Below, one piece after another: positions 7,864-64,000 of a stretch of DNA of 64,000 nt. The stretch lies in contig JAUCBJ010006915.1 in NCBI GenBank assembly GCA_032718475.1, forward strand, positions 1-64,000. The letters are read 5' to 3'. This DNA is from Nemertoderma westbladi. Lineage: Eukaryota; Animalia; Xenacoelomorpha. The notes below the pieces were generated by a model. It did not search any database. It had not been told where the DNA came from and was given only the letters and a program-made list of their open reading frames with translations. The position numbers and the translations under genes were made by a program. How positions within the stretch are numbered: the stretch's first letter is position 1; every line of letters starts with the position of its first letter.

Positions 7864-7894
7864 TAGCAATGATTATGTAACCATACTTCAAATA

Positions 7895-11609: not shown

Positions 11610-11705
11610 ATAAAGTGTTATATATAAAAGGACTAATTATTCCGAACTCGTAAACTCATGTAAAGCGGGAAGGAAGGAGTGGACGGAAGACTCGTGAGCC
11701 TTTCT

Positions 11706-15076: not shown

Positions 15077-15215
15077 ATATAAAACCCCAAATATAATATC
15101 CAAATATAAAATATCCAAATATAAAATATCCGAATATAAAATGTCCAATATAAAATGTCCAATATAATATCCAATATAACATCCAAATAAAATATCCGAA
15201 TATAAATATCCAAAT
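15077..15215 (-). repeat. ~15-bp tandem repeat in the 3'UTR of B
   Basis: (aatataaaatatcc[a/g])n on the + strand, flanked by two palindromic motifs. Confidence 0.85.
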
Positions 15216-15251
15216 CGGTAGGCTCGCAAGCCTTCCTTTCTTCTCGCTTTC

Positions 15252-20825: not shown

Positions 20826-21030
20826 TAGGGCGGTGCGTTTTTTACTTTTTTTTCGATTTCATTGTTCTACCGGTGCACAAAAGTTGCCAAATGGTAAAAA
20901 AATAAGGCAAAAAAAATTTCTTCCAATTTCGTCTATATCTTCACGGATCCCAAGAGGGTTGAAATTTTGTGCCATCGCGATGCACCATAATGAAATTTAT
21001 AACAATATAACACATTGATGAAAGATCAAT
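20826..21030. mobile_element. DNA transposon terminal fragment at the B/C junction
   Basis: Begins TTA-GGGCGGTGCG, AT-rich and non-coding; integrases of both B and C break off at its edges. Only one end is recognisable. Confidence 0.45.
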
Positions 21031-32567: not shown

Positions 32568-34107
32568 CCCTATTAAACCCGGGGGGGGGGGGGGGGGGTT
32601 TATTATAATTCTAAAAGAAACGCAGTTGGGAATCTAAAATTTTATGACTTTTCCTAAAAATCTATTGTCTTCCTAGTAGAGAAAACCGTTTTCAAAAATA
32701 TTGGGTACTTTTCGAGTTATAGCACCATTTTTTAACCCTACTTTTGGCACTTTTTATGAGACGTTTTTTGAAAATTACATTTCAATAAATATGAATTGTA
32801 ACATCTCTATTTTGGATTTACACCGGTTTTTTGGTGTTAGAAATTTGATGGAATTCATATAAATTGATTTAGAAATTTCAAACTTGTTTTTTTCGGTGGG
32901 TGCCAAATTTTGGTTCCAGCCCCAAATTTTGAAATAAGTCAATTTTGTAAATTGATTGTTTGAAACTTGTTTTTTACGCAATTGGGGTTTTTTGGGTTTC
33001 TGGATTCGTTGAAATATGTACGAGTTGCACTAAGCGTATCAAACTTGTATTTTTCGGTTCTGTGTGCAAATTTTGGTGCTAGCACAAAATTTTGAAAATC
33101 CATTCAATAGATAAAATTGCTTGTGACAATTTATTTCTTGCGTTTTAGAGGTTTATGGCTGTTCTGAATTCAATGGAAAATTTAATTATCGAACTAGACA
33201 TCTCAAACTTGTATTTTTCGGATGTGGGTGCAAAATGTGGTGCTAGCACCAAATTTTGAAAACCATCAAATATATCAATTGATTGTGTCAACTTGTTTCT
33301 TGCGTTATACGGGTTTGTGATGGTTCTGAATTCAATGGAATCAGTAAAAATTTCATAAGAGTTCTCAAACTTGTATTTTTCGCCAGTGGGTGAAAATTGT
33401 TGTGCAAGCACCAAATTTTGGAAAATATGCAAATTGATAAGTAGATAGTATCACCTTGTTTCTTGCGTTATACGGGTTTATGAGGGTCCTGAATCCGATG
33501 GAATCAATAAAAACAGCGCTGGACATCGCAAACTTGTACTTTTTGGTGATGGGTACGAAATTAGGTGCTAGCACCAAAATTTGCCAAATTACGCCGAAAA
33601 ATACATGTAGCAATGATCTGGCATATTAGAAATGTATTCCATTAGAATCAGCGCCCTCGAAAACCTGAAAATGTGAATTTATAGCATCGTATAAGTGAAT
33701 TAAAAATTTTGTGTTCTAACTGAAAAGTGCTGGTTACTTGTTTTTTTCATTTTTTTCCTACGCAGAGAGGACTAAACAGCCATTTATAGTAATCATATCA
33801 TTTTTTAATATTTTCCAATGTATTTTGCACCCCAGAAATCCTGTATTGAAAAATAATTAGCCGAAAATGTAACTTTCAAATTTGGTGAAAATTGTGCACT
33901 ACTTGTAATTTTGGTGCTGCAATATAACCACCCCAGTACATTTTTTCGAAATTTTTTCGGTCGGATCCAGACAAGTGATACCTACGTACAAATAAAAAAT
34001 CAGACGTTTTCGTAAATATTTGTAGATTTTAGAGGGAGGGGTCAATATGACCCCCCCCCCCCCCCCCCGGTATTTGTACAACATTTTATAGCCCGGTACT
34101 AATAGGG
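32568..34107. mobile_element. piggyBac-type non-autonomous element with internal ~180-bp tandem repeats
   Basis: TTAA|CCCTATTAAACCCGGG ... CCCGGTACTAATAGGG|TTAA; repeats containing ggtgctagcaccaaattttg at ~32790-33590; truncates the RT of D. Confidence 0.75.
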
Positions 34108-37100: not shown

Positions 37101-39981
37101 GAATACTTCCCGTTCCGTCGACTCCGAGTCGCTAGATGAGTCGCTGTCATCCGGATAAGGTGGTTGACGGGTTCGCGTCTGGCGTATTACCTTTTGTCTC
37201 ATTTGTTGGGGTCTAGAATCTGTGGTTCTCCGTCGTTCGGTAGGCTCGCAAGCCTTCCACGAAGTCATAGGTCTTGTTAAACATTGTTCGATCCTGCGGG
37301 TACTACCCACATCTGTCCTCCTCCGTTGTTCGGTAGGCTCGCAAGCCTTCCACGAAGTCGTAGGTTGCGTCGAACATTGTGTCAAAAGTCGAGTAAAGTA
37401 GTCGGGTTTCGTAGTCGGTCTATAAATAACTGGGTTCGCACAGCACGTCACAGGTTTAACTGCTAACGGCTTACTTACCTGTTTAATTGTCATAAACTCA
37501 GGTTCCTCTCTTCCTACAAGTAGACTACGAATTACTGTAGGTGGACTAGATACATTACCTGCTAAAATTGGCGATGAAGTTGCCCTAGGTTGCGGTATTT
37601 CCGTCACAACAAACCTGTTACCTTGCGTCGAGCGCACAGGTGTTAATTCCTTAGGTTTCGTAACAAAGACCGGTTTTATCGGAGTCGTGGGTTTGAGCAT
37701 AGGAATCACTTGTGGAAAACGTTCACAGTAATCCTCGACGAACTCATCTCTTCGATCCATCGCTCCAATACTTCCTTCCTCGATTCGCTTCTGTATCCCG
37801 CGATATCGAGCTTCCAGGTGATCCAGGGCAGACAAATCGTGCGCTGCCTCGCGCGATATTCGATTCAATTCGAACTGTAGTTGCATCTCCCTTTCGCGTC
37901 GATCTGCTACTTGTTGTTGTGCCGCTAACTCCGCTTCTTGTATCGCTAGTCGAGCGTTAATCTGTCTCACTTCCATCTCGGCGCGAGCGTCAGATGCCGC
38001 TTTCTTCCGAGCCAACTCCGCTGCGTTTGCTGTCGCAACTCGTGCTAATTCATTGGCTGCAGCTTCTCGTGCCAAATCTTCCTCCAATCTTCTTAACTCC
38101 AAGGCATCGACTTCTGCTTGCGCTTTGAGTTGCGCAATCTTCGCCTCGTCTTCTCTCTGCTGTTTCTCTCTCTCGATGGCGATCTGTGCCATCTGTCGTT
38201 GCGCTTCTTCCTCGAAGACTTGTTGTCGGCGTGCAACTTCCTGTTGTTGTCGAGTATTGTCAGACGCTGTTCTACTATCGTCGCCAACGTCGCTTCGCAT
38301 GCTAACGAATGATCTATCCATCGGTGGATTTTGGTAGGCTCGCGAGCCTTCCGTAGTGATAACTTCCGTCGTCCCTCGCGGTTCGACTTCCGGTTCTTCG
38401 ATCAGTACGCCGTTTCTACGAAGAAAATTGGTGAGCATCTCCAACCTCCCGTCCAAGCAATAAAGTTCTTCTTCCTCTTCGGGTTGTAACAACGCGTCCG
38501 AAACTGACTCACCTAGCAGTTGGTCGAACTGCTCCTGTTGAGCCAATATTATTACTGACTTAAACTGGATAATGCTTTCTCTCGCACTTACCAACTTATC
38601 TATTATCTTTACCTGAGTAAAGTTGTCGCCACGCAACTCTGCGAGTTCGTGTAAACCTTTCAGTTTATCTACGGAGGCATGTACCCTTCTTTCTATCCTT
38701 ACCTGTAAGGTGTAGAACTCGTATCTCGACATCGGGGCGGTTAACTCGCGTAAAACGCGAAAACCTTCTCCGAGGTTTCGAGTAATCTGGGCCATGTGTC
38801 CTCCTATACTTCTAATGACATTTTCTTGGCTTCCCGCCAAGCTTACCATGTCTGGTTCCCGTGACCTGGTCTGCGGGATTGTAAGGAAATCCTCGATCCT
38901 GCCGTCGCCATGCATTGCGGCTTCCGGTATTTCCGTTTGGGGTACCGGCGACGCACGCGGTGTGACATCGGTGGAATCTCGGGTTCTCCTTCTCGGTTCG
39001 TCTACTGTCGATATGTCCGGGTCGCACGAGTCATAGTCGGTAGGGGGGTATTGAGTCGAATGCGGTGTGTCACTCATGTCTTATTATATACGTCAAGTAC
39101 GGGTAATAAAATGTCAAAGTATCTGAATGTTGAAATGTCAAAATTACCTTGGTATATATATAGTATATATATACCCTAACCGGTACAAATAAATCAACAA
39201 AGTCAGAATGTCGAAATGTCGAAATGTCCAAATGTCAAACTTACCTTGATATATATATATATCATATAAATACCCTAACCGGTACAAATAAAACTAACAA
39301 AGTATATAATAAATATGTAATAATCTAGCCTACCGGCTAAATTTGTACGAATAAGTGAGATAACGGTATACGTTACCAAAATGTAGATCAACAATTACAA
39401 ATAATAGGCAAAACAGCAACGTCTAACGGCAAAATAAGTACCAACAACACTACTAATTAGACAGTGAAACCCACAAAACTACTGTGCTTTCTTAAGTTTG
39501 AACGACATGAGTCGTAAAACTTACGCTCCTTTGATCTTCCAGTCGTGCAAATTCCCAAATACAAACCGGACGTGGGTCGTTCCGTTTTTCGGCGGCGCGG
39601 ACGAATTTTTTGTCTCCCAAACTTTGCGAAAAGCGGTCTAATCCTCGAAGCGGTCCAGAAATGAGTCCTTGAGTCCTGAAAAGTCGAAGGTGAGAGTTTT
39701 ACTTCTACTCTACGAAAAATCTTCCTAGGTACCGATACAACTTGGTCTTTAAACCCTATGTACCTTTTCAAGTACCGAAAAGTAACACCGCACACACACG
39801 GCGTAAAACAAAATGCTACAAACTAACTATTAGCTAGTCAAATATTAAATACGAAACTACTAGCTACCCTAAAAGCCTACTGAAGCAGGGGACGTTTTAC
39901 AAATTACTAATTTTTACTAACCTTAAATTTTTAAATATCTCCTACTTACAATAGCTAACAGTATGACTGTGTTACGGTATA
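34108..39981 (-). mobile_element. BEL/Pao element D (5' half: leader, Gag, protease, RT start), A/B lineage
   Basis: Gag/protease closely homologous to A; shares the A/B palindrome; leader cut by LTR E at 39982. Confidence 0.9.
34112..39077 (-). pseudogene. gag: Gag-protease-RT(N-term) of D, frameshifted, with internal RT deletion
   Basis: PPKFSGNAKHW; CSYC, CWRCTKPGH, CPLCGRNH; YAILDSASSHSY; YEVGMLW, GPNMNNYL, DVEAMFHQV, VFGARDSP. Deletion at ~34378 relative to F. Confidence 0.9.
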
Positions 39982-42283
39982 TGGCGCTGTACCTACATTA
40001 TGTAATATATTAGTCCGTTATACTGTACATACAGTCCCTATCTCATTCTGAATATTATTTCTCAAACTGGGTATCATTTCTCAAACCGTTTACTAATGAT
40101 AGTCAACGGAGAATTTCAGTAGGTAAGACTAGGGTAAGAGTTGAGAAATCAGAAAGATGCAGCCAGCTCAATCTAACTCAAACTAAAGTCTGGCGCCATG
40201 GTTGGAGTTAGGTTGACCTCCAACTGTGCCATACTCAGCATTACTCTTCCTGTACGGGATGGATAATTACTCTGGTTGAGTGAGGTACCACATGGGGAAG
40301 GGGCCTCTGTCTGTTAGTGTTGCTTGGGCTCTTGAGTTACATAAGCTGGGCAGGCCGGCTTGCGTGTGTCTCATAAAAGACATGTCAATCACACAGTTCC
40401 TTTGTGGGCTTTACTAAATGTATGTTGTTAACTAAACTACACTGGCTCTGTCTGTTTGTAGAGAAAGTTTTAATTCTGGGAATATTGTTGTGGGAAATTG
40501 GTGCTCTGTTGTCTGTCTGTTTGATGTCAATTGGTGCCTTACAAGACATATCAGTTCAACAATCGAATGGTTAATTAAGAATTATTAGTGCATATGGGAC
40601 CTCGCAACACACCCCCCCCCCCCCCCCCCCCACCCCCCTCCCATAAATATGGCCCTGTCTATAATTACAGAGGTTTCCTCTGGCCCCTTTGCCCGGTATG
40701 CCCACACCCGGATATATTGCGAATAATTGTGTTGACGATGTAATAGAGAATTAAACATTAGTAAAACATTAGTAAAACATTAAAGTTAAACATTAGAAAC
40801 ATTAGCGAAATATACGCGACATTAAAATAAATTTATAAAATTGGTTGGTTATATTATATGGTTATATTTTAATGTAAAATAACGTTAATATGTTATGAGT
40901 CATATATACTTAATAAATGTAATAAAAAATTAATTTAGTTTAATTAGTAGATCGAGTAGTTTATTCGAGATTTAGATTAATTAATAATTTAGCATATAAT
41001 TTTTTTATTCTGAAATTTAAAAATAAATTGAGTCACTGAGTCTGCAACTTAATTCTCACTGTCTACTGGAGTTAATTACACACAAACAAATCAAGTTTAG
41101 GGAATGTTATAACAGCAGGAGACCATCAAACCCGTAGGCAGAGTATAACAGAAGCGAGTGGGCCATTAAACACAGACAGCTTGTTGTATGAATGCTACAC
41201 AGTGCACAGTGGGTGGTTACGCGAGTTTGAGTTGGGTTTGAGTAAACCAGACAGGTTTGAGTTAGTAAGAGTGAGGTAAGAGAAAAGGTACCCAGTTTGA
41301 GAAACGGTATCTAGAATGAGATAGGGACTGTACATTAGTCCATTATACAGTATAATATATTAGTCCAATATATAGTATCATATATTAGTCCGTGATGCAG
41401 TATAATTATTTAGATAAGGCATAACGCGCAATGATATTTAGATAAGGAAGTTGAAACGCCCATATATTTTGAACTCATCCATTTTGTATAGTATGTAGCC
41501 CTACCTATGTAATTTTGTAATAGGATATAAGTAGATAGTTCCAGGGTAGCAAGTCATTGTTGGACCCTGGATATGGGCTTGCCGTTATTAGCATTGATGA
41601 GGCTAGCTACTGGTTTTAATTTCTCTATAATTGCGCTAAATTTATATTTGTGCATGATATTATTAGTACCGCCAAATTAAGCATCGGGAAAATTACCTTT
41701 TATGGTGGCAATTTGCGATTCCAGGGAGCAATATGTTCACAATCCGGCTCTCTTATTGGCCTAACTGCTTCCAGGTTGGTCTAATGGTAGCTCGGATTGG
41801 GGAGCCAATGAGAGATCGATTGCATCACCCTTCTCAAATCACCTATAAATTGGCCTGCTTCCATTGCCGGTATGCACATCCCATTACTCATCCTCAACTC
41901 ACAACCAACAACCCCATACAGCTCACCTTCAACTATTATTCGATGCTTAGTTTTTCTGTGTAAATTACTGCCCCTTTGATTTCTTGCAATGATTTGCTAA
42001 TTTACGATTTCTGTTTGATTCTTGTCTGTGTTTCTCAATCAATCTCAACGATCACTGTTAATTACAAATTGGAACTATGATTTCTACCCCTTAGTAAATG
42101 GTTCTATGTGATTCCTTTCGACAATAATCCTACGGGATTTCTTAGACTGTCAGACTTTGTGATTTGCATGTGCCGCTACATTAGCTACTCATTCTGATGG
42201 AGGGCTAGGGTACCGGTAAGTGCGGCGGGCGCATTGGGGGGTTAGCGACGACGGGAGTGTGGAGGATTCAAAGACAAGCAACA
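39982..42283 (+). repeat. 5' LTR of E (~1 kb) interrupted by a TIR element
   Basis: TGGCGCTGTACC...AGACAAGCAACA; CCAAT boxes and CTATAAA at ~41844. Confidence 0.85.
40032..41330. mobile_element. Tc1/mariner-type non-autonomous element inserted in LTR E
   Basis: TA|CAGTCCCTATCTCATTCT ... AGAATGAGATAGGGACTG|TA (18-bp perfect TIR, TA TSD); absent from the second LTR copy. Confidence 0.92.
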
Positions 42284-42284
42284 T

Positions 42285-45410: not shown

Positions 45411-45433
45411 GTATAGATGGTATATATGGTCAT

Positions 45434-48033: not shown

Positions 48034-48829
48034 TATGCTCCAAGGGAAATCATGCAATGTTTCCCTCCAATTGTAGAAGAGTGTTAGGCGATGTATACAA
48101 AATAAAATAAATCTCTTTCAAATAATCTAAATATCTTGATACTATACTATTTACAAATATTGCTATAGATATTGCATAATGAATTGCATACAAATTAAAT
48201 TTACAAAATATTATCTCTCTCTCAATGTTAACGATTATTACATACAAATTAAATTTACAAAAATACTGTTTCTCATTCGTTCTACATAATGATTACTACA
48301 TACAAATTAAATTTACAAAATACTTTCAAATTATAAAAATTTTGCTAGGGTAGGTGAAGGGAGTAAGCCAAACCCGCAGGTTTGTCTCCCCAATCACCTC
48401 CTTCGCCTCTCTCATAATATAAATCCAAATCAGTGCGACTAGTGTATATGAGTCAAGTCGGATATTTACAAATGCTACAATATACATCAGAGCGACGATG
48501 ATGTATATATCTAGAGTCTGTCGCCCCGTGATACAATGCATTACTGACCCGCTCCTGGGTTATTCGGGCTCGCTCCTCTCTTTCGCCCCCTACCCAGATA
48601 CACCAATCGTCCTCCAGTTGACTCCGTTGATGTGGTTCGTGAGGCGTCACTCCCCGGAACCGGCGACGATGTTCCCCGAGCTCCGACAGATTCCCAGCTC
48701 GTGCTTCTCCCTCGGCCTCGTCCTGATTGTCGTGCTCCTGTGGTCGCTTCCGCCAACTCTTCCTTCTGCAATTGCACCCGCGCCTTCTCCGACGCCCCCT
48801 GCGCCTTGCGTTGCAATCGCTGAGCCTCT

Positions 48830-51800
48830 ATAATCGAATGAAAGTGGTCGTCCTTGACTTGACGCTTGTCTTGGACCTCTCCTCCTTGTTCCTTCCGTGA
48901 GCCTTGAGCTCAAACGGTCGTCGTTGTGGGCGCTGCGGTTCGCTGTTCCTCGATCCTTTTAGCGGTCAATGACCCCACTGGTACGTGAGTCAACAGGAAT
49001 TCGTTGCGGTATTGAATAGCCGCCATCCTCCAATCTCCTCGCGCGCGCACCACTTTCCTAGTTTCCGAAAACAAACCCTTCGTAATACGGTCGCAAATAG
49101 TAACAAAGTTCCAAGTGTACTTGTTATCCATATTTAGTTGTCTAAAGTATTCCCGAACGACTATGACTCCAGTGTTCTGTGGAAGGTCTTGAGCAGTTAG
49201 GATGAGCTCCTGATATTGGGGTAGCGACTGTAGATATGGCTCGTACGCAACATGTGACGGGTCTACCGCCCAAAATCCATATCCCGCCTTAAATGGTAAC
49301 CAACGCATCTGCGCTTGAATGTGGTAGTCAGCCACACTCTCCCACTTATCTAGCATCTCCCGAAGTAGGTTAGTAGGAACCATACCAGAAGTATGGTTCT
49401 GGAAGGAATCGTCTCGCAGTTGGCATCTCGCGCTACGATGTCCCTTTACTCCACAATATCCACATTGAGAGATGAAAACGGTGCACGTATGAAATGAATG
49501 GTCAGTCTCGTTACACCAACGGCAGACCTTATGTGCCGCCTCCACTACCGCGTCGCACGATTTTTGATTGTGCCTTGTGCTGCCGCACAACTTGCACCTA
49601 CGCGCTTGTGGAAACCAGGCCCTCTCGTATATGAGGTCTCCAATCGGTTTCGCACTTCCTTCTTTCCCAATGTCCAATACGATGTCGTCCTCTCCGGTCA
49701 GCGGTTGTCGATCCGGAACGAAGTAAACATCCTCGCCCTTGTCCTCTATCTCCAATATTTCCTCCCGCGTTCGTTTCGGATATGTCTTCTCCACCGGAAG
49801 ATCTACTCCAAACACCTCTACTAACGTCTACGGCCAACCCTCTAACAGGTCTATCAGCCTCCGAGTGGAAGGGAGTACCAAACCCGCGGGTTTGATTCCC
49901 GAACCACTTCTCCAAAGCTTCTGGCGTCGGATACTCCATCGACGGTCGGTCTCCCAAATCTCCGATATTCTGTCGATATATCCCTTCGAATATTGCTAAT
50001 CCTCTCCTAATCATCGACGTATTCTCTAGCGATTGGTTGAAGAACGGGGTTAAGAAAGGCTTCATCACGTCGGATTGGATTCCCCCTTTCGAGCGAACGT
50101 ATTGATCTCCTCCGAACACCAATGGATGACGCTTCAAAACTCGCGCAACGATATCCGCTAATAAACAAGTTACCGTGTTCGACTCAAGCACCAAATAATA
50201 TTGTAGTGACGCACGGGGTGGCGCGCATATGTTCCAATACACTAACGCTTGCCGCTTGAAGTGGGATTTGAACTCCGCTCCCGGTGGCGTGTTATATTCA
50301 CCATACGCCTCCTCATATTTCTTCTGCGTCTTCATCTTGAAGTCCCAATTATACAATAAATATGCTATGAAGCCCATACCAGTCTTGGCAGAGTTGGGAT
50401 ACTCCCTATAAATTCCCATGTCTTGTGCCCATAGCAACAATAGCTTGGTGTCGACAAACAGTCTCGGCAATCTATCTTCTAAATCAGTCATGGCGTTGAA
50501 GTCACTCTCCAAATCGCTCTGGACTCCCGATCCCACCTTGACGTAATCTTGGCTAAGAATCGCCTCTCTAACCTTCTTTGGTAGCATCCTGGCGTCGATA
50601 CGCTCCGCTCCATGCATACCTCCTCGCCTGCATACCTCCTAAATCTGTTCCCTAGGATCCTTCCCCTTCCGATATTGCGTCGTGATTATGGGCTCCGGTC
50701 TCTCTCTATCAGCTCTTACGCGCATAAACACATGAGTCACACCATCGACCACGCGAATTTGAATGCACCTACTAGTCAAGCATTCCTGATGAGACCCTCC
50801 TTCATTGTCGTAAAACATCACTCTCCAATCTTGCAGTGATTCCTCCGTTTTCCTCCACTGACGCTGAATCTCGTCGGATGGGGTTCACATGCGCTCGATA
50901 GCCTTGTGGTCGTCATATCGGGTGTAAGATCCCTTTCTCCTCAGCCACGTCTGGTCTATCTCCTCGTCATCTGGGAATGTAGCCACCGCGACCCATACCT
51001 TGATGTACTTGTCTAACCATCCAAATAACTTACTCTCTTTTCCCGGAGCTCCAATCTTATCCAATGTGTCGTAGTCTGTGATCTGCATCGGGACATCACG
51101 CAAGAACTTCGCGCATAAAACTTCCCGTAGACAGTCGACGTTCCAATGATCCGACATCCTCACCATCGGCAAGAATCTAATCGCTTCTCGCGACTCCGGG
51201 TGATCTACCAATATCGCAGGTTCGCTACCGTCGTAATAATACACCGGTCTTGGTTGAGATACGGCCAGTGGAACAAATCCGGTCACTCTCTTCGTCTCCT
51301 TTTGATGTCTATCCGCGGTCTTATTATATTCCGCTATCCGCGCTTCGAATAATTGCTTCGCTTTCGCCGCTCGCTCCTCCTGCCGCAACGCGTCCATGTC
51401 GTCCTGATGCTCAGGTGTGAGGGTTCTCGCTCGATGAGGCGAAGTAAACGTAGTCCAGGGACTCGAGAGCTCCAAACCCGCAGGTTTGGTACCCGAGTCC
51501 CGTGCCGCTTCGCGCCGCGCCTCTAGGTCCTTGTAGGCTCGGTACAGCGAAATGGCCGCTGCTGTCTCTATCAAACTAGGTGTCGAACAGGGTTTAATCT
51601 CCGTATATGGATCTAAAGTCGTAACGGTCAGCGTAATGGGTCTTGGAGGTCGCTTTCCGCTGAAGTCGATACTGATCATCGGGTTGCTCATTGGGTAACC
51701 TCCCTCATTATATCTAAGGAACTGGTGAGCTTGACATCGCGTTAATATCGGTTCAGAATGTTGGTCGTCCAATCGGTCGGGAATCGCCACGTCTTGTTTG

Positions 51801-52279
51801 TTCATGCATTCACCACATTTGTAGAACAGCTTGAGTATACTGAAGACCTTCGACGTCTCTTGATCCTCGCCTCGAGTCCTCCGATACAAATGCATTCCGT
51901 CGAACTGATCTCGGACTGCAGGTAGCGGCTCTTCGTGTCGTAAATACATGTTCATGTGGTACAACCGCGCAATCTCCTCATCCGGGTCTGCGCTAATGTC
52001 GCACACGTCTAACGCGAAATCGTAGGGATACCGAGTGCGATACTCTTTCCGCAAAACTTCCATACGGTCCCCCAACGCTCTCATTCTTTCCCTCCTTAAT
52101 TCTTTATCATAAGCGGGTTTATATTTCCCATTTAGCTCCATCACCGACCTCCCGTGGTAGTAAACATTCGAATCCTTACATCCCGGTCGGGCAAATGGCA
52201 GCTCCGCCTCCTCTCTGGCAGTAAATCCTCTCCGCGGTTGCGCTCTAATTTCCTTCTCCATTATGCCGCGTATATACAT
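48830..52279 (-). pseudogene. ORF3 of F: DEDDy exonuclease plus CCHC knuckles, frameshifted
   Basis: DGMHLYRRTRG, CGECM..RCQAH, MFYDNEGGSH, VKVGSGVQSDL, FVDTK, QYYLVLES, PIGDLIYERAW, CKLC/CRWC/CGYCGVKGHRSARC; RGRGRS tail in an alternative frame at ~48700. Confidence 0.85.
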
Positions 52280-53026
52280 ATATATCCCAATAAGGTTCCG
52301 TTACGTGACTAATTACACTGTGGGTAAATCAGTTAGATGTCGCCGAAGGACAGACCTCTTGAGCCCCCCCCCCCCCCCCCCCCCCCCGCCTTACAGCAGT
52401 TCAGGTTCGACTCTCTAGATCCCGTCTCATTCCTAACTATCCTCTAACCTATTCCCATGCATAGCGCAAAAACTTTGGAGGTAAACTGGCCGTGACCAAC
52501 TCACTTTTTGATGCCCAAACAACTCCCTTTACTTGTACTAAACTACAGTAGTTAGAAAGGACCATAGTCTCAATGCTCGACTATACCAAACCCATAGGTT
52601 TGATAATCGAACATCACACTTCACTGCAAACTACTGAGTGGGGTCCGTGTACTCCCTGGTGCTACTAACCTTTAGCACCTTAGTTGTACTGCTGGCACCA
52701 ATCTGTGGAAGTTGCTAAACTCAATTTACACTCCTACATAATATAGCCGTCACCATGGTTTCTAAATGCTATTTCCAGGCTTCACAACTTTTCAAATTAC
52801 TGTTTATCTATAGACGAATTCAAAACGCGTCTATACACAGCGTCTGGAATTGTCTTGGGTTCATTTCTAATTTTTAAAATTTTTTAATTTTCCAAAATTT
52901 TTGAAAATAAAATTTTGTTTTGATACCCACCAGACAAAACTCAACGCAAATCACCACAAACCTGCTCCTATGCATTTCCTTGTATTTGCATACGAGGAAT
53001 GCATACGAAGTGAGTTGCGTCCAACA

Positions 53027-54488
53027 CTAATTTTTGTTTGAGGCAGGAGACAAATTATAATCTCCTGTCTCGATGCGTGTCTCCTCTAATAACACGATAT
53101 CTTGGACCGGTCGGTCCAAGGTGTGTAAACCATTAGTTTTACACTTCTTTGGGTGCGGACACTTGCACCTAATTTTCACAGTGACTGTGCGCACTATGTT
53201 TTGCACGTCTGGGTGTATATGCAAGATGACTCCAGTCTCCCAATATTTTCTCTTGACAATAGGTTCGGTTATCAATACGTAATCTCCCCTTTGGAGACTC
53301 CGAACCGTTTTGTACCACTTTGTTCTGGTAGGTATGGTGGGAAGATAGTATTCCCGCCAATATTCCCAGAATGTGTACGCAACTAATTGTGTCACTTTCC
53401 AGCTCTTACGACTGTATAGGTCGGCACTAATGGGTTCTGATGCCGGCACAAGAAATGCTGGACTCTGCATTAGCAAATGATTCGGCGTTAATGCAACACC
53501 GTCTGGCAATATAGCTACCGGCCTCGAGTTTAGTGTATGCTCGATTTCGATGAAAGCTGTGACCAGTTCGTCATCGGTAAGTTGTTTGTTCACAGGCAAT
53601 GTTTTGGCAATGGCCTGCTTTACAGAGCGAACTAAACGCTCCCAACTTCCTCCTCTCCAAGGACTTTCTGGAGTATTGAATCTCCACTCTACTCTTTGCG
53701 GCAAAAGTGCTGCAGAAATTTCTTTATTCTGTGCCGCTTTATGAGCCGCGTTCAACTCGCTGTTCCCCCCGACAAAGTTTGTACCCTTATCGGAGTAGAA
53801 CGCCTTTACTAGTCCTCTCCTGGCCATAAATCTCTTTAAGGCCAGGAGCAGAGATTTGGTCGACATGTCTGCCACACGCTCAATGTGTATGGCTCTACTA
53901 GCCATACATGTCAGTAGCAGATGTCAGTCTTTGCTTCAATCGGACCAAAACAATCCACCCCTGTGTTCGTAAAGGGTGGGTCATATGCCTGCACTCTCGC
54001 TTCCGGGAGTTCAGCCATCTCCTGTTCCAATACTCTGGCGTTCACCATCTTGCAAACCAGACAGGCGTCGTACATAGTGCCGACTGCCCTGCTTGGCTAC
54101 AATAGAATGAATCACTGTCTCGCTGCCGACAAACAGTGTAACTTTCCCGTGTGATGCAACCTCTTGTGTATATCCCATAGAATCGCTCTTTGCAATTCTA
54201 TTGGGTGACTAGGGATTATCACTGGGAACCTAAACTGTGAATTTATGTCGACAGTCTGGATTCTCGATCTATGACAAATCAAACCCTTATGGATTAATGG
54301 ACTCCATTTTCTAAGGGGTTTATAGAGAACTGGTCGTTGAGCCGATAATAGATGGAATTCTTTCGGGAAGGCACACATTTGATAATGCTTCAAATGCTTT
54401 AATTCCGCTTGATCAATCTCATCCTCTGTCAGAGGTTGTTTCAATTTCTGAATTCGCTCACTATTAGTGCTTGTTCGTTCTCCTAAAT
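53027..54488 (-). pseudogene. pol: BEL integrase of F, disrupted
   Basis: HKRLHHTG, GVDCFGP, YSDKGTNFVG, WRGGSWERLV, DRPVQDIVLLEE; lesions at ~53910 and ~54110. Confidence 0.9.
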
Positions 54489-54493
54489 GTTCC

Positions 54494-54754
54494 TCTTCTA
54501 TTTCTATTTGTTTGTTGATCAAAATATAACATTAGGCTAGGCTTATAATAATATCTTTCATATCTAAAAGCATAATGTATATAAGCAAAATAATAATATC
54601 TGAAGCCCGTAGGCCTACTGTATTACAGTACTAAAGTTATATCATTAAGTAGGCTAATACATACATAATAAAAGTATATTGGTTACCGGTAGGTAATTCA
54701 ATAATCACCACTTCTATATATTTAATATGTAGAGGGAAATTCAAATACAGTACA
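54494..54754 (-). repeat. 3' LTR of G
   Basis: Appears identical to 59627-59887 by eye. Confidence 0.97.
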
Positions 54755-54777
54755 TCTCCATTCCCCGCTAAAGAGTT

Positions 54778-54896
54778 TTATATAAAATTTTCAAACTGAA
54801 ACTTTCTAAATTAAACAGATATAAAACTTTCAAACTGAAACTTTCTAAATTAAACAGATATAAAACTTTCAAACTGAAACTTTTTAAATTAAACAG
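54778..54896 (-). repeat. 42-bp tandem repeat (x3) at the 3' end of G
   Basis: atataaaactttcaaactgaaactttctaaattaaacag units. Confidence 0.85.
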
Positions 54897-57465
54897 AACC
54901 ATATCTGTCAGGAGCAGAACGTTCACGCGTACTTCGGCGCAATGGTGGTGTCTCAGTAAAGTTACTATTGTTCTCACCCGAGTTATTTTTATCATCGTAT
55001 TCGGTAAAATGATAGAAAGGTTTCAGAAATTTCCTATTGCGAAGGTATTCGTGTCCCTCGCTGAGAACTATATAAGAACGATCAGTGTTACGTTTCTTCT
55101 TAATTACTCCAAGTCGATCCCAACGTCCAGAAACTTGAATACGTACTGTTTCTCCGATAGCTAAAGGTTTCAAATCATGACCACCAAGAAGATCTCGGCG
55201 ATAGTTAGCAACAGTTTTTCGTTTTTCTTCAGCTTTCTTCAATTCATTTGGTTTAATGGTAGAATATGTTGAAGAGTGGGCCGGTGCCCGGGTTCGTTGG
55301 CTACGCCCAAAAAGCCATTGTGCTGGTGAAAGCCCATCATCGGAACGTGGCGTGTTTCTCCATTCTAACAGTGCCACTCCAAACGCTCTCTGGTTTAATC
55401 GCCCAGTACTGTTGTCCCAGTGTTTTTTTATAAGGTGTTTCATACTTTTAACGGCAGACTCTGCATGCCCATTAGACTCCGGGTAATAGGCTGACGATGT
55501 CTGATGGTCTATTCCATTGTCTATACAATACTTTCGAAATTCAGAACGGAATTGTGGTCCGCCATCCGTTCGCATTTTTTCGGGAATTCCATAGTCTCGG
55601 AACCACTGATCTATAACTTTAATAATATCTCCAGTATCTGGTGCCTTGGAGAGAGATGGTAAACCAACTACAGGCCAACCAGAATACCGATCAGCCAAAA
55701 CGATTAAGTGTCTGGATCCATATTCAAAGAGATCCATGGAGACATCTTCAAATGGTCGATTTACAAATGTCTGTTTACGAGTCTCAGATTTCTGACTTGC
55801 CTGTAACTGTTGACACTGTTCACACTGCAAAGTCACCTGTGCTATATCATTGGATAACCCAGGCCAATAATATAGCTGCCTAGCTCGGGAATAAGTTTTT
55901 AATTGGCCTTGATGAGCATAATGTAATGCATTCAATATTTCCTTCCTACAACCAGTAGGAATAATAATCCGGGATGCGTCTAGAAGAATTAAACCGGAGT
56001 TCACATCAACACTTAATTTAGCCCACTGGTTAGAATATGGCCGAGCAGGATGACTTATCGGCAAATTCTTAACAATCTTATTTGACAAAAGGGCTTCTTT
56101 TATAGCTAAATATGTAGCATCACTATTAGCTACTGATATAATCTTCTCCAGAGCTATATCATTTTTATTATCTTTGTCTTGTATGTCATTTGTTTCCTCA
56201 GAACTCATTACTTTATTAATGAAACATATTTCACTAACAGCCACATCTTCCTGATCTTCTGGAGAAGGGTCCTCTATTGGAGTTCGACTCAAAGCATCAG
56301 CAATCAAATGCTTTTTACCTTGTGTCCACTCGAGTTTGAAAACATAACCAGCCAATTTCTGTAAAATCCGCTGAAGACGAGGGTTATCTATGGCATCTAA
56401 TAATTTACCATTTACAATACCAAGTAAAGGTTTATGGTCTGTCACCACATTAAATTCAGTTCCAGCAAGGTACAATCGACATCTTTGTACTGCCCACTGG
56501 ATAGCTAACAATTCCAGTTCGCAGACTGCGTAGCGTGTTTCAGCATCACTTAAGAATCTGCTACCGCACTGAATGAGGTGAATAGCACCATCATGGTCAT
56601 GCTGAACCAAAGCAAATCCCAAACCTCCCACTCGCGATGCATCAGCTAGAAGCACTGTAGGAAGTGTATGATCAAAGTGGCGCAAAATCGGCGCTGATGT
56701 TAATGCTTGTTTGAGCTCCTCAAAGGCCAACTGATGTTCCTCCAACCACGCAAAATGATTTTTTTGCGAGAGTAATGGTCGTAGAGGTGTCATTAGTTGA
56801 GATACATGAGGTGTATACTGCGCCAACTGATTAACTAAGCCAAAAAGGCTTCTCAAATCAGTAATATTAACAGGAATGGGAAACTCTCGAATAGCTTCAA
56901 CCTTCCTAGGGTCTGGTTTAACTCCATTGCCACTTACTACTTGACCTACAAAATTAACTTCTAAGGCAATCTGAAACTTCTCTAACGATATCGTTATTCC
57001 ATGAGATCTACATCTTGTCAGTATATTTCTAACTCTGGTCTTAATGGTGTCCCAATCAGCAGCATGAACAAGAATATCATCAACAATCTTCTTATATCCA
57101 TGAAGTCCTTCTAGAGCTTTGTCTCCGCGCTCACAATACTCGTCGCCACTTGAAGCTAAACCCATTGGAGCACGAAGATAGCGAAATCGACCCCACGGGG
57201 TTAGGAACGTTGTTAATGCCCTACTCTCTTTTTCAAGAGCAACCTGCCAATATCCCTTGACAGCATCAAGGGATGCGAACCATTTTGATCCAGGTGGGAT
57301 TGTTGTCATGATCTCTGACGGTGTGGGAAAAGGGTGGATAGGTCGCTTTACATAGCGATTCAGCCCAGTATAATCCACAACTAAACGAACTTTGCCATTA
57401 GGTTTCCCCACTATGTGAAAAGGTGATACCCATTCGGATGACCATCGACTGGCTCGATAATACAC
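54889..57465 (-). CDS. pol: Gypsy Pol: RT-RNase H-integrase
   Basis: RLVVDYTGLN, LDAVKGYWQ, TPWGRFRY, IVDDIL, ADAS, TDHKPL, HYAHQG..CEQC, TDGGPQF, YPESNGHAE, RNRKFL. Confidence 0.95.
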   Translation of the reverse strand: MYYRASRWSSEWVSPFHIVGKPNGKVRLVVDYTGLNRYVKRPIHPFPTPSEIMTTIPPGSKWFASLDAVKGYWQVALEKESRALTTFLTPWGRFRYLRAPMGLASSGDEYCERGDKALEGLHGYKKIVDDILVHAADWDTIKTRVRNILTRCRSHGITISLEKFQIALEVNFVGQVVSGNGVKPDPRKVEAIREFPIPVNITDLRSLFGLVNQLAQYTPHVSQLMTPLRPLLSQKNHFAWLEEHQLAFEELKQALTSAPILRHFDHTLPTVLLADASRVGGLGFALVQHDHDGAIHLIQCGSRFLSDAETRYAVCELELLAIQWAVQRCRLYLAGTEFNVVTDHKPLLGIVNGKLLDAIDNPRLQRILQKLAGYVFKLEWTQGKKHLIADALSRTPIEDPSPEDQEDVAVSEICFINKVMSSEETNDIQDKDNKNDIALEKIISVANSDATYLAIKEALLSNKIVKNLPISHPARPYSNQWAKLSVDVNSGLILLDASRIIIPTGCRKEILNALHYAHQGQLKTYSRARQLYYWPGLSNDIAQVTLQCEQCQQLQASQKSETRKQTFVNRPFEDVSMDLFEYGSRHLIVLADRYSGWPVVGLPSLSKAPDTGDIIKVIDQWFRDYGIPEKMRTDGGPQFRSEFRKYCIDNGIDHQTSSAYYPESNGHAESAVKSMKHLIKKHWDNSTGRLNQRAFGVALLEWRNTPRSDDGLSPAQWLFGRSQRTRAPAHSSTYSTIKPNELKKAEEKRKTVANYRRDLLGGHDLKPLAIGETVRIQVSGRWDRLGVIKKKRNTDRSYIVLSEGHEYLRNRKFLKPFYHFTEYDDKNNSGENNSNFTETPPLRRSTRERSAPDRYGSV

Positions 57466-59399
57466 TTCCTCACCATGTCGTCAACCTCAAGTCTAGCTTT
57501 TTCTCTGTAGGCAAATGGAATTGCCCTTGCTGTAGTGACATGAGTTGGATTGATTTCAACATCATCCTTCAGATGAATTCGCATAGGGGCCCCTGTCATG
57601 GGCTTTAATTCAGTTTCACTATCGAAAACATCTTGAAATTCTATATTTAATTTCTTAATGAACTCATTTATTTCAGTTGAGGTTGGTTGATGATTGACAT
57701 CTGTGAAATGTACATGTTTTTCTGAAATAGTATTATTAATCACTATTTGTTTAACACCAAGATCATATTTCTTTATGATTCGTTCACTCAATGGGAATGA
57801 CTTATTAATAATATCAAGGTCAATTAAGGTATGCCAAGAAATTATCAACTCATCCTGTAAATCAGGAGTTATATATGCTGTAACAGTTGTTACACGATCA
57901 TACCAGGTAACAACTAGTTGCGTAGATCCGCTACATTGAAGCTCATGGCCACCTGCAGCAACTATTCGCCGTATATCATCAGTCTCACACTCAAATTTGA
58001 ATTTCTCAACTAGATCGGCAGATATCAGACAGTGAGATGCCCCAGAATCAGGTAAAATATCAACATTAAATGCCTGGCCTGGAGACCCATCTTCAGGATC
58101 CACACGTACTCGTGCAGTAGGTGTAGATCGACCATGGTGTGACATGGTTACACAAATGCGTATTATATTATTTTGAATCGGTTCTGCATTGCTGTTCCCA
58201 GATATAGATTTCTGAGATTTTCTATAATAGCAAACCTTACTGAAATGATTCTTACGTTTGCATTTATTACAAAATTTCCCATATGCTGGGCAATATTTAC
58301 CAACACCATGTTTTTCATTACCGCAATAACTACATTTGTCGGTTGATTCATTATTGCGAGCTCTGGACTGAGAACGCCCCCAATTTGAGCTTTGTTGTCT
58401 AGCATTTTTATTGCGTTTATAACTAGATGTAGAGGCTTTATTCACTGTAGCTTCGCTACTTCTTCCTCTATTCAAAGCCTTTTTGGCCGCAGCAGCAATT
58501 TCCCATGCTAAGCCTATTTCCATTATCTTATCATACGTAGGCTCTTTTATCTTTAAAAGTTCTTTTTGTAACCTGGGATGCTTAATAGCTCCACAAACAA
58601 TCTTTGTAGCCAGTAAATCTTCATATGGAAGCCTATCAAGCTCCGAATCTTGGCCAATTTGCTTCAAACGCACGATATAGTCACTGAAGAGTTCACCATC
58701 TGCCCATTCACAACTCCAAAAGTTGTGTCGGCGATTCAATACTGGCACCTGTCGAATAAAATGTTGCTCATAAAATTCGAGAACTTCCATTATTGGTGTA
58801 TCTACAAGAACTTTAAGAAGTTGTTCACCCTTAAGATCCATGGCTGGGTCAACACATGACCGAAGGTGTTAACGCTGAGTTGAGGCTGGCAATGCAGACA
58901 TCTGGTTGGAATTATAAAAGGACTCAAATCCTTTTCTCCAAACGCGGTATTCAGCCAAACTAGCTGATACAGATAAATTTATATGCGGCTTCAATGAAGT
59001 ATCTATCCTTGACGATCTAGGAGCTACAGCTAGAACTCCCGGTGGAGGCTTTGCATCAAACTGCCCTCGAATCTTCCTTATGAAGCTACAGAATCCATCC
59101 AGGATTTCATCTAGGTCGCAGTACTCGACCCACCCTTTATCTGTGTGTAGGTTGTCTTCATCGACACCTTCAACGTCCAGACATCTATCAACGGCTGCCT
59201 GATATGTATTCATTAAATCTCTAGCCTCTTTAACTGCTAACTCTGCAGTAAGCAAGTCACACAACCGGTAATCCGGCTGTTGGATTTCAGCCATTAATAT
59301 TTCTACTCGCGTTATGGCTTTTTGAGCACCAAAACGATATTGGCCACGGCTACGTCTTGCAGAAGTAATTTCAGCACCTGTACCTGTAGGCATAATCAA
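57411..59399 (-). pseudogene. gag: Gypsy Gag-protease with an in-frame stop (58869) and a frameshift into RT (~57440)
   Basis: Mag-type double knuckle CSYCG..H..CPA..CNKC..HF..C; protease LPDSGA; IIEPVD|SEWVSP split between frames. Confidence 0.9.
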
Positions 59400-59626
59400 G
59401 CTGTTTAGCCTATCTACTTCGATACTTTAGCTCCGCTGGTCATATATATTGGCCTACTTTCAACGACACAGTACTCTGTACTGGACAGTCGGTACCGGTA
59501 CAGCGGTAGGCCTGTTTATTTATTTTTTTGATCACCGGTACCACGATTTAGGTTTAACTACCGGTCACCGGTCTGCCGGTGTTCATTGCAGCATTGTCGG
59601 TAAATACTGAAATACTCGCAGCGCCA

Positions 59627-59887
59627 TCTTCTATTTCTATTTGTTTGTTGATCAAAATATAACATTAGGCTAGGCTTATAATAATATCTTTCATATCTAA
59701 AAGCATAATGTATATAAGCAAAATAATAATATCTGAAGCCCGTAGGCCTACTGTATTACAGTACTAAAGTTATATCATTAAGTAGGCTAATACATACATA
59801 ATAAAAGTATATTGGTTACCGGTAGGTAATTCAATAATCACCACTTCTATATATTTAATATGTAGAGGGAAATTCAAATACAGTACA
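59627..59887 (-). repeat. 5' LTR of G
   Basis: TGTACTG...AGAAGA, immediately followed by the PBS. Confidence 0.97.
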
Positions 59888-59892
59888 GTTCC

Positions 59893-62800
59893 AAATGTTT
59901 TATACAAAGGTACGAAATGTATCGGCTTAACCACGCAGTTCTTTTACAAATTGTCAGCCAAGAGGCAGACGAATTTAGTAATTTGTCATAAATACTACAT
60001 GGCTCTAATGCCAGCGACGGTTGTCCGCTAATTAATGGAAGTTTCGAATCCAAACCCACAGGTTTGGAAACCAAAGGCTCCATTTTGTCGGTCATTTTCT
60101 GTCCATCACTTACCAACTGTGACCCTGGTGTAGTCTGTAAGGGTGGTTTTATGTCGTAACTTACCCTTCTGGACCTAGTAGTCACGTAAGTCTGTTGGTC
60201 TGACAGGTCTCCGGGCCGCTCCAATGACTCTTCAGGCTGCTCCAATGACTCTTCAGGCCGCTCCAATGACTTAAGTTTGGCTTTAGACTTAGACTTAGAG
60301 ACTTTCTCCACCTTGACTTCTGCATCTTCAGGCATCGGATTGGTCACTATTTTTAGTCGCTCTGGCCAATGTTCCTGTGTCCTCGTTAGAAAATCAGGTC
60401 CATGCAACCAAAACTCCTGCGACTCTTCCTGACAGAATTCCGCCGGCATTGCACCTCTCGAAGTTATGTCGGCCGGGTTTAACACTCCCGGACAATGTCT
60501 CCATTGTTCCTTCGTCGAAAGTCGACGATCTGAGCGCGTCTGTTGGCCACAAATGTCTTTAGTGCAATATTGTCGGCCGCAATGTATACTAACACTAAGG
60601 ATGCGTCCGTCCAATAGAATAAGGTCAATGTCGTGTCTAACTCCTCAATTATCTGCTTACTTACCTCAACTGAAACTACTACCGCCTGTAACTCTGCACG
60701 AGGGACAGTCATATATTTGACCGGCATTGTCTTTGATCTAGAAGTCACAAAGGCCGTCTCAAACTTATCCTGACTCACCTCTCGGCGAAGGTAGGCTACC
60801 ATACCAAAGCCGGTGTCACTTGCGTCACTGAACATATGGAGTTCTAAATCAGCTGGGAATACCAGCTGATTCGGAAAGTAGGAACGGGGCACATCTATGT
60901 TTTTCAATAGATGCAACTCGGCTTCCCACTCTCTCCACTGCTTTGCATGTATAGGAGATATTGGTTCGTCCCACTCTAAGTCAGACAACCAAATTTTCCT
61001 CATGCATGCTCGTGCCTGTAATATTACCAGACTGATAAAGTTCATCGGGTCAAATAGTCTACTTAAAGTCGATAAGCAAATTCTCTTTGTCAAAACTTTG
61101 TCTGGGCTACTGGGCTCAAACCTAACTCTTGCCTGGAATTTATCCGTGTTCGGATTCCAAGCGAGTCCCAGTACTCGCGCCATGGGGATGGGTTCTACCC
61201 CCAATACAATGTCTCCGCTCCCGCGATCCTTTACCGGGAACGACTCTAATAGGGCCTCCGAGTTCGTAGTGAACTTGGTCAGAGGAAATCCCCCTGTAGC
61301 CAAGCACTCCTGCAGGCCGTGAGCCACTTCTATGGCTTGTTCTGCTGTGTCCTTGGACACCAATCCGTCGTCCATATAGAAGTTTCTCAAGATGGACTCG
61401 ATCACTTCTACTGGATACTTACCAATCTGGGCTGTTGCCGTTTTCTTTAGAACAAACAGCGTGCCATTCGGACTATCGCGGGCACCAAATATCCTAACGT
61501 ACATTTGGTATGTAACCACTGGGCCGGATAAGTCTTCATTCTCAAACCAGAGAAATCGATGGCTATCCTGGTCTGCCTTACAGGCTCTTACCTGGTGGAA
61601 CATCGCCTCGATGTCACAAGTAAATGCGAATCGCCGCTGTCTAAAACGCAACAGTATTCCTATCAAATAGTTATTCAGGTTGGGACCATCCATCAACTCT
61701 GAATTCAGGGACATACCTCTATAGACTGCTGCGCAGTCGTTGACTACTCGGACTTTATCAGGCTTGTCAGGGTGAGTCACATAGTGGTGTGGGAGGTAAT
61801 AAGTCTGTTCTGTCACTAAGTCAGGGTCCTCTACCTTCCCAGCAAATCCCTTGGCGAAATAGTTGTTGATCTGGGCGCAATACTTCTCCCTAATGTCTGG
61901 GTTCTTCAACAACCGAGCCCTTACTCCGTTCAATCTTTTCAAGGCTAAGTTGTAGTTGTTCTCCAATTTAGGAGGTTGTCGACGCCACAACATTCCAACT
62001 TCAAAATGTCCAGTCGGTAGCAGACGTATGGTATCTTCCATCATCTCCAGTGACCGTTTCTCATCAGTGGACATGGCTAGGTCATATCCACCGGGTTCCA
62101 TTGCGTCCCTATCCAGCCATTCGACGGTTCTGGCTCCTGTCTCGAGGTCCTGGCGTATCAATTCCTTCTGCAATTCCTCCTCACTGTATTGGAAAATGTC
62201 TAGGTCTCGATATTTAGCCACTTGACCCTCCACTATGTTGGTATAAGTCAAAACGTTACTCAAATAGGTAGTGTGGGCCGCTGAACCAGACCCACAGGTC
62301 TGATAACAGTAGTCCTCGGGTTCACTATCTGTCCGGTCGTTATGAAGTGGTTCCGACAACCTAACATTATCGGGAATCAACTCCTCGTCCGACTCGCTAA
62401 AGTCACTATAGTGGTCAATACAGGTTCTCCTAAACTCGTCTATGTCTGGTGGTTCTACTAACGGTGGTTGAGTTATAGGCTGTAATTCGTCGTATCTATC
62501 CATTGGCTTGTCGTCACCTGTAAACTCATAAGACATGGGTACTCGTGTATACCAACCTAATATAGTCCTATGGGCATGTGGTCCATTGACATGCGGCTCA
62601 GCTGGTCTCGTTTCCCATATTTGGTGTGTGATCAGCTGTTCTGCACCAATTAACATAGAAACATTCCTATAACCTACCTGATGTCTGGGTATTCTGAGCT
62701 TGTCAAAATACTCCTGTGCTATGGGACTCATGTCTGTCTACTGAGTTAAATGTCACAGTGGTCCTGTCATCGTCAAAACTTACCATAGACTTACCGGTAA

Positions 62801-63720
62801 CAGGTTTAGACTCTCTCATATTCTCCTCTGAGAAGTTTGATTTCATCTCTGCTACTGCGTCTGTGGCTATCATGTCATGAATATGCTGAAGTGTCAATAC
62901 TTTACCTTGGCCCTCCAACTTATTCTTTAATTTGCGCCATTTCTGTCTGTAACGCATGTTTAGACGTCTTATTACGCCTTTCAAGACTTCGGCGTGATCA
63001 CCATGATAAGGTAGATTCACCGTCCTCAAGATGTCCAATGCGTTCGAAATAGCGTTCGCTAAGTTCAACAGCTCTAACGGAGTTGTAATCCTTCCGCCCT
63101 TACCCAAGTCTTCCACTATCGACTGTGCCATCTTGGTTTTATTCCCGTAGAGGTCGCTAAGCGTCTTCATTGCCAACTCAAATGCCCTTTCATTGCCGAC
63201 GAAGTTGTCAGCAATGGCTCTAGGTTCTCGATGGAGCATCTGAAGCAAATAGTTGAACTTCTCGTTGGGAGTAAAGGTGCTGTTGGTCAGCTGCTCGTCG
63301 ACATAGGTTTTGAATGTCCTCCAGTGCTTGTGGTTACCCATAAACTTCTGGGGTTGTTGCGTCGGCAGTCCTTGCCTAGCAGCAAACTTACCTATGTCCC
63401 TAAGGGTTGCGTCGTTCCGGGTTAACAAATGGTTTAGTTCTGCAGGGTTGTTAAGTCTGGTCCTTTCCCGGGGATTGAGACTTACCTGCTCCGCGTCCGT
63501 CCTTCTTTCCTTATAGTTTCGGGACTTCTGACGTCTCATGTCTTCCTCTTCATCACTCGATTCTGTGTCAGTCCTTAGCGCTCGCGATGGTTTGCGTGCC
63601 GAGGCCCTGACCCAGGCTTCTTGAATAAACTTTTCGGCTGAGTTTTCGAAATCGGGATTATGGATATTCGGGACAGGCGTCCTTACCTGAGGTCTATGTG
63701 GTATGGGCTGCTTCCTTTAA
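59893..63720 (-). pseudogene. pol: Gag/RT/RNase H of F, frameshifted, with Gag knuckles and protease active site deleted
   Basis: PQKFMGNHKHW; HRTILGWY; YLPHHYV, RVVNDCAA, DIEAMFHQV, FYMDDGL, LHMFSDAS, FYWTDA, NPADITSRG. No CCHC or LDS motif between Gag and the protease C-terminus (~62790). Confidence 0.9.
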
Positions 63721-64000
63721 CCGTAGGTTGCTAAGCATGTCTGCTATAGGTTGGATGTGCGGCGATATAGCTTGCGCTAAACTAGCACTTAACTCATCCC
63801 TCGTAATAAATTCCTGGCTAGGGTTCTGTTGTATAGTCGGCTCTATCTGAGTAATCCGCTGTCTCTCATATGATCCCTCTTCCGGTTTAACCCGGAAGTT
63901 CTCCGTCGAACTGGGTCAGCGCTCCGTCCGCGTATTCCAAACCCGCGGGTTCGGTTCGCCAAATACTCGGCCCGTCGGAGTTTCTCCTCTAAACTCTTCG

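Follow-up and report, generated by a model that had tools for sequence, protein, structure and literature searches.

We analysed a 64-kb window (64,000 nucleotides, contig JAUCBJ010006915.1, positions 1 to 64,000) of the Nemertoderma westbladi genome, centring on a short palindrome repeated through a BEL/Pao retrotransposon, element F, and on the long third open reading frame (ORF3) of that element. Pfam matches and self-comparison showed that the window, eukaryotic repeat DNA, is made up of nested, decayed long terminal repeat (LTR) retrotransposons, with five BEL/Pao pieces (A, B, C, E and F) and one Gypsy element inside F. We take BEL/Pao elements to be the family that the ICTV names Belpaoviridae. 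The BEL/Pao assignment follows from a DUF1759 Gag, Peptidase_A17 and an integrase followed by DUF5641; F matches DUF1759 at 6e-10, Peptidase_A17 at 3e-38 and DUF5641 at 1e-17, and DUF5641 was also found in A and B. All three carry a long third ORF after the integrase. A, B and E are truncated and F continues beyond the window; DNA sequencing runs of one organism contain F in high copy. The elements, with reverse transcriptase as RT, are:

3215..12600, + strand: element A, BEL/Pao; 5' truncated, RT-RNase H deleted; ORF3 at ~7895-11609
14600..20850, - strand: element B, BEL/Pao; integrase, ORF3 and 3' untranslated region (UTR) present
21026-28339, - strand: element C, BEL/Pao
34100..40000, - strand: element E, BEL/Pao; leader, Gag, protease and RT start
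~48000-64000, - strand: element F, BEL/Pao; extends past the window end
53027..54494, - strand: integrase and DUF5641 of F, interrupted
54494..59893, - strand: Gypsy element inserted in F; 267-bp LTRs, 99% alike; without the dispersed motif
59894..64000, - strand: Gag (DUF1759) and RT with RNase H (Peptidase_A17) of F, with internal deletions, running past the window end

A dispersed palindrome in four elements

The original prediction had placed six copies of a palindrome in F, and all six coordinates match (48368, 49878, 51472, 52586, 60050 and 63937). On the sense (minus) strand of the element, the copies at 51472 and 60050 have no mismatch, those at 48368, 49878 and 63937 have one, and that at 52586 has two. 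Allowing up to three mismatches, the window holds 14 strand matches, compared with a shuffle mean of 0.12 (maximum 2 in 100 shuffles). A seventh copy, overlooked in the original prediction, lies at 62286 with three mismatches, one of which is a compensatory change from an A-T to a G-C pair. Once the Gypsy insert is discounted, the copies are spaced 1.1-2.2 kb apart, and five of the seven sites are single copies in coding linkers:

48368..48385, - strand: F motif, 3' UTR; apex of a predicted ~60-nt hairpin at 48342-48414 (z -3.0 sense, -3.9 antisense)
49878..49895, - strand: F motif, ORF3 linker after DRPSM; predicted extended stem (p 0.035)
51472..51489, - strand: F motif, ORF3 linker after LYRAYK; predicted extended stem
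52586..52603, - strand: F motif, integrase-ORF3 intergenic; long G·U-rich stem on the sense strand only (p 0.015)
60050..60067, - strand: F motif, RNase H-integrase spacer (p 0.035)
62286..62303, - strand: F motif, protease-RT spacer; compensatory pair change
63937..63954, - strand: F motif, Gag linker ahead of the capsid domain

A motif at the peptide level was rejected, as the copies stand in three reading phases and also in non-coding sequence. An eighth look-alike, at 45098, sits in a separate Gag 5' fragment (44140-45430, + strand) with the leader and Gag start of another BEL-like element. This fragment forms the loop of a ~2.7 kb inverted repeat (41335-44138 and 45431-47979, 91-96% identity), likely a foldback DNA transposon.

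The motif of A and B gave 26 strand matches in the window (0.00 in shuffles), and a looser pattern placed 18 sites of this type in A, B and E, a count that excludes a further three-mismatch match at 5645 as chance and retains the degenerate copy at 10198:

4739, 4959, 7521, 8666, 10198 (degenerate), 11685 and 12238, + strand: A motif copies
19313, 18172, 16631, 15217 and 15024, - strand: B motif copies
38333, 37332, 37239, 34829, 34751 and 34673, - strand: E motif copies, B-type

Centred on their tetramers, the forms read AGGCT-YGCG-AGCCT in B, AGACT-YGYG-AGCCT in A and AAACC-YGYG-GGTTT in F. The purine/pyrimidine pattern ARRCY-YGYG-RGYYT (the inner 14 bases) is exact at 21 of the 25 sites, as against 0.17 per shuffle, although it was derived from the same 25 sites and so indicates compatibility and not discovery. 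The inner pairs of the F and A/B types differ by paired transitions, with A intermediate. The stem had been described as switched in F to a different palindrome; instead, F and A/B/E fit one core, transitions apart. Paired transitions are the route by which a helix changes through G·U, and the reasoning on UNCG loops likewise serves as background here. Three positions differ from B in most A copies, with 4739 being B-like and 8666 mixed, so that the mixed copies of A look like concerted drift caught part-way, judging from their sequences.

In a blind scan for dispersed 14-mers, the motif was the best match in A (6 copies), B (5), E (5, one loose) and F (7), compared with 2-4 copies in three shuffles of each. 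Short tandem runs of the motif were found only in E and in the 3' UTR of B and A. The leader of E (39080-40000) contained no copy, the copies being spread through the body of the element, and Rfam at the gathering score gave no match in the window. The dispersed cis motif with concerted family drift is real and apparently undescribed.

We compared these elements with BEL loci from metagenome contigs. Six distinct BEL families (the non-redundant loci above 5 kb among 27) and the Gypsy element reached at most three copies in the blind scan, none above shuffles. A palindrome scan of the 20 loci of at least 2 kb returned only loose four-copy matches, in L001 and in the tandemly duplicated L004. 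The ORF3 profile matched none of the 27 control loci, a full unit without ORF3 being clear only in L002, L004 and L005. The six control families, with neither a motif above shuffles nor an ORF3 match, count in favour of the hairpin tag proposed below. A BEL integrase scan of viral contigs found none. In L002 and L004, BEL units stand head-to-tail in tandem.

The positions of the motif had been called homologous between families. Compartments agree throughout: each of the seven F sites shares its compartment with a site of A, B or E. Only the two ORF3 linkers keep exact register, and strict orthology of sites is shown there. From LYRAYK to the motif centre the distance is 65, 59 and 59 nt in F, A and B, in codon phase 2 in all three, and the ORF3 alignment sets TKPAGL over GRLASL at this linker. 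From [DE]RPSM the distances are 63, 78 and 84 nt, in phase 0 throughout, the copy of A being degenerate there. Elsewhere the intergenic copies lie 92, 132 and 134 nt ahead of a common GTGAGT in F, A and B. The Gag linker distance is 558 nt in F against 418 and 511, and that in the protease-RT spacer 261 nt against 287-470, both with differing phase. In the RNase H-integrase spacer the F copy is near the 3' end and the A copy near the 5' end, and the 3' UTR sites share a compartment without exact register. The motif is thus family-specific in that the copies of each family share its form in the same seven compartments; it was not replaced outright, and its positions are exact only in ORF3.

Several other repeats were observed in these elements. 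The copies at 4739 and 4959 have a TCAACCA 3' flank in common, and the RT/RNase H deletion of A starts at most ~25 bases past a motif copy (4760-4790). A 12-mer, ATTGGAGCGGCC, occurs in RNase H-integrase spacers, once in A (5306, + strand) and as three tandem copies in F (60225-60267, - strand). Element C (21700-27700, - strand) contains a weak dispersed repeat, CCTAAAGATCAGGTA, exact at ~25297 and 24145 and looser at 27656, 22079 and 21740. Situated in Gag and Pol linkers, seemingly in one reading frame (PKDQV-like), and with four copies compared with 2-3 in shuffles, it may represent either a peptide motif or a further, third tag. Upstream of element A and separate from it, an intron-free frame of 566 aa with a cold-shock domain lies at 948-2648 (+ strand).

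Pairing, folding and read variation

The way in which the motif varies points towards pairing in the sense-strand RNA. Among the imperfect pairs at the 25 sites, 30 are G·U when read on the sense strand, 7 are A·C and 15 are of other kinds, 11 of the 15 being the fixed A·A of B and E. Within the central four bases there are 20 G·U and no A·C; hand-collapsed to independent events, the comparison is about 10 to 1 (p 0.012, post hoc). The background counts of TGCG/CGCA (20/24, 27/24, 24/24 and 31/32) indicate that strand bias is absent, and the observed/expected CpG ratio of 0.97-1.22 in A, B, E and F indicates no CpG depletion. CpG decay as a general source of the YGYG loop was rejected on this normal ratio and on the read variation at 48368; at 51472, DNA reads showed that other F copies nearly all carry a CGCG loop, the T being private to this copy.

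The flanks of the seven F sites, although mutually dissimilar in sequence, extend the stems (Fisher p 0.003 sense). The long stem at 52586 is predicted at -24.1 kcal/mol on the sense strand and -11.4 kcal/mol on the antisense strand. Predicted core hairpin energies are -6 to -9 kcal/mol in F, B and E (34751 only -1.4) and weak in A, and a predicted self-duplex of -11 to -36 kcal/mol is available at all 25 sites. Using three DNA runs from two samples and a threshold of 1%, we found that the sole difference listed among other F copies over 48338-48425 was the first base of the loop, at 8-26% of depth. The element average, 509 variable places in 6281 bases, gives an expectation of about 7 over this interval (p 0.007); the same test on the central 60 bases gave p 0.045.

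ORF3 and its predicted exonuclease

ORF3 is, by predicted fold, a DEDDy 3'-5' exonuclease domain with three zinc knuckles and an N-terminal domain without a match, and protein identity between families is 42-50%.

48541..52261, - strand: F ORF3, with in-frame stops and frameshifts; unknown N-terminal domain at ~51560-52100, DEDDy exonuclease at ~50114-50830, three CCHC knuckles at ~49410-49600
9255..9980, + strand: DEDDy exonuclease domain of A ORF3, as modelled
52499..52504, - strand: predicted splice donor GTGAGT, common to A (7661) and B (19190); CTAAC branch-like box and AG ahead of ORF3

Pfam by itself gave no exonuclease match in ORF3, and PDB sequence searches gave chance matches only. 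In the Atlas the middle of ORF3 falls near 3'-5' exonucleases, with 24 of 30 matches in the PF01612 set. A model of the domain built with distant relatives added reached a predicted local distance difference test (pLDDT) score of 73, and Foldseek matched it to EXD2 (E 1.6e-4). The model matches the DEDDy enzymes EXD2, NrnC, RNase D, Nibbler, WRN, EXD1 and Egalitarian (Z 9.2, rank 44), the best VIA match having Z 11.5, a root-mean-square deviation of 3.8 and 155 aligned residues. The acidic residues D-E-D-E are kept, with D15, E17 and D105 invariant in seven of seven rows, and the ExoIII motif reads YLAIE or YLVLE, with E for D and the tyrosine kept.

A profile search of ORF3 against 1.84 billion representatives returned nine distant proteins (E 4e-8 to 6e-4), whose sequences share, whole or in part, the exonuclease, the three knuckles and a short following domain. 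No relatives were found in searches of a 5.8-billion set, or in metagenome or viral contigs. Proteins P0001-P0012, from metagenome and sequencing-run assemblies, have the layout of a DEDDy exonuclease with a triple zinc knuckle, P0001 having the knuckle module twice. The N-terminal ~230 residues are the best-conserved part of ORF3, with conserved Cys and His; they had no usable match in Pfam, PDB, the Atlas or the 5.8-billion set and are not recognisable by sequence in the distant relatives. This exonuclease-knuckle accessory gene is apparently new in BEL elements.

Ahead of ORF3, the GTGAGT, CTAAC box and AG are conserved in A, B and F (7234-7900, 18950-19690 and 52260-53027). These conserved donor, branch-like and acceptor boxes suggest that the ORF3 message may be spliced. 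A block shared by A and B directly after the integrase may be an internal promoter.

A putative RNA tag, its rivals and known systems

We favour, with a probability of about 0.5, the reading that the family-specific palindrome is a hairpin tag in the element's own RNA, bound by a putative element-encoded reader. A seven-pair stem with a YGYG loop would fold in the sense transcript, and the repeated tags would allow an element protein to coat the element's long RNA and to distinguish this from the RNA of other families, which may serve export, stabilisation or packaging. One reader selecting all copies would make them drift together via G·U intermediates, and local tandem duplication would add copies. 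ORF3 is the first candidate reader on its exonuclease and zinc knuckles, possible but doubtful; Gag is the second candidate, an unlikely one. The knuckle of the Rous sarcoma virus (RSV) nucleocapsid binds a UGCG tetraloop (PMC5035970), and Egalitarian contacts RNA stem-loops via an exonuclease-like domain (PMC13186709). More speculatively still, and at doubtful odds, BEL/Pao elements of this clade may practise self-recognition at the RNA level, with a hairpin tag every 1-2 kb that ORF3 would read to protect or gather cognate RNA, or with ORF3 trimming fragments ahead of their amplification by small-RNA silencing; tag and reader together would drift into mutually blind families via G·U intermediates.

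A number of observations weigh against the hairpin tag. The extension of the F stems is equally significant on the antisense strand (p 0.002), and the flanks of A, B and E add nothing to the stem (18 sites, p 0.70). The A form makes only a very weak hairpin (about -2 kcal/mol), and its fixed A·C pair is a G·U on the antisense strand only. In the 5' arm of F any transition is wobble-compatible by composition, so that part of the bias is built in, and the motif sites are not mutually independent. Differences close to contig ends are left out of the read check, and its count may be too low. The link between motif and ORF3 rests on one clade, in which ORF3 is not separable from Gag; in most control loci the downstream DNA is too short for the absence of an ORF3 to be established, and C is a truncated element. 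In RSV the UGCG loop is dispensable for Gag selectivity (PMC5035970).

Pairing between RNAs offers an explanation without a sequence-specific protein reader, in which same-family copies would duplex, zip two packaged genomes together at many points and sort families apart. All 25 central tetramers, including TATG at 52586, form Watson-Crick or G·U pairs across their centre, and the A form, a poor hairpin, is a fair duplex (-11 to -25 kcal/mol). Predicted mean duplexes are -27 kcal/mol within F and -31 to -32 for B with B/E, as opposed to -11 for F with A/B/E. Mutual pairing by itself would force concerted change, and the PAL1/PAL2 palindromes of Ty1 drive dimerisation (PMC6844567). We nevertheless consider this explanation unlikely, given that an A·A mismatch is fixed in all 11 B and E copies, that the extended stems of F would bury the palindrome in a hairpin, that known dimer signals are few and 5'-located, and that A and B still cross-pair (-24). 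A double-stranded DNA site for a dimeric protein (a host factor or the N-terminal domain of ORF3) maintaining the activity of the element, as in VANC/VANDAL, would suit the near-perfect 18-20 bp dyad with its CGCG centre and an A form that has no need to fold. VANC motifs likewise stand in one orientation (PMC5735166), and the ORF3 N-terminal domain is its best-conserved part and is not visible in the distant relatives by sequence. At a symmetric site, however, C-to-T and G-to-A changes would be expected in equal measure, whereas the centre shows 20 to 0; the elements have no CpG depletion, the self-complementary F flanks would be useless in duplex DNA, and the recognisable ORF3 domains act on RNA or single strands, all of which makes a DNA site improbable.

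Neutral copying, in which a hairpin spread by template switching or gene conversion is tolerated in linkers only, is in our view very unlikely. It would account for the local tandem duplication in E (37239/37332 and 34673-34829), for the flank letters common to 48368 and 49878, and for the confinement to linkers as the sole tolerant places. Most dispersed copies, however, share no flanks; two ORF3 sites keep exact register between families whose proteins are 42-50% identical; the 3' UTR site varies less in reads than the element does on average; and six control families have no repeats of this kind.

Outside yeast, little is known of the way in which an LTR retrotransposon distinguishes its own RNA from the RNA of sister families present in one cell. 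If the hairpin tag holds, the signal would be visible by eye, with natural variants (A, B/E and F), beside an uncharacterised accessory nuclease, so that cognate and non-cognate binding would be directly testable with short oligonucleotides; the variants would also form a natural orthogonal tag set.

Literature searches gave no description of a dispersed palindrome or of an exonuclease ORF in BEL elements, with subscription papers, bioRxiv supplements and repeat databases outside their scope. The present elements resemble BEL/Pao in their DUF1759 Gag, Peptidase_A17 and integrase with DUF5641 in the usual order, and differ in their long acidic/basic Pol spacers, in an ORF3 of ~1,200 aa that does not resemble env, and in carrying the dispersed palindrome. 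The bdelloid Juno/Vesta LTR retrotransposons and Athena/Terminon likewise have a 3'-5' exonuclease at the ORF3 position, with acidic residues kept and a D-to-E change, but are not BEL, and the exonuclease here is fused to three knuckles and further domains; the available text mentions no repeated cis motif in them (PMC5408684). CERV of Caenorhabditis elegans Cer1, compared by description only, is an accessory protein from a spliced retrotransposon mRNA that acts on genomic RNA (PMC10309623). Egalitarian shares an exonuclease-fold domain touching stem-loops, but is a host protein and a mid-ranked fold match (PMC13186709).

Among cis signals, Ty1 PAL1/PAL2 (PMC6844567) and the UGCG tetraloop of RSV psi (PMC5035970) are a palindrome or UGCG-capped hairpin in retroelement RNA, but form one cluster near the 5' end, whereas here the motif is repeated through Gag, Pol, ORF3 and the 3' UTR. 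The dispersed packaging signals of single-stranded RNA viruses similarly comprise many stem-loops per genome with a proposed self-encoded reader; theirs are degenerate, while those here are near-identical 18-20-mers, family-specific and in an LTR retrotransposon (PMC6281560, PMC5699041). The original prediction had likened the motif to VANC21 and the YAGTATTAY of VANDAL21, which also pair a family-specific motif, whose copies change together, with an extra element-encoded protein. That analogy is weakened, since VANDAL21 is a DNA transposon whose non-palindromic 9-mer lies in tandem arrays within non-coding DNA and is linked to loss of methylation, none of which is seen here as far as tested: the copies also stand singly in coding linkers, vary like an RNA helix and show no CpG loss (PMC5735166). 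If the hairpin tag is real, it would constitute an animal, RNA-level counterpart of the plant VANC motif-reader arms race.

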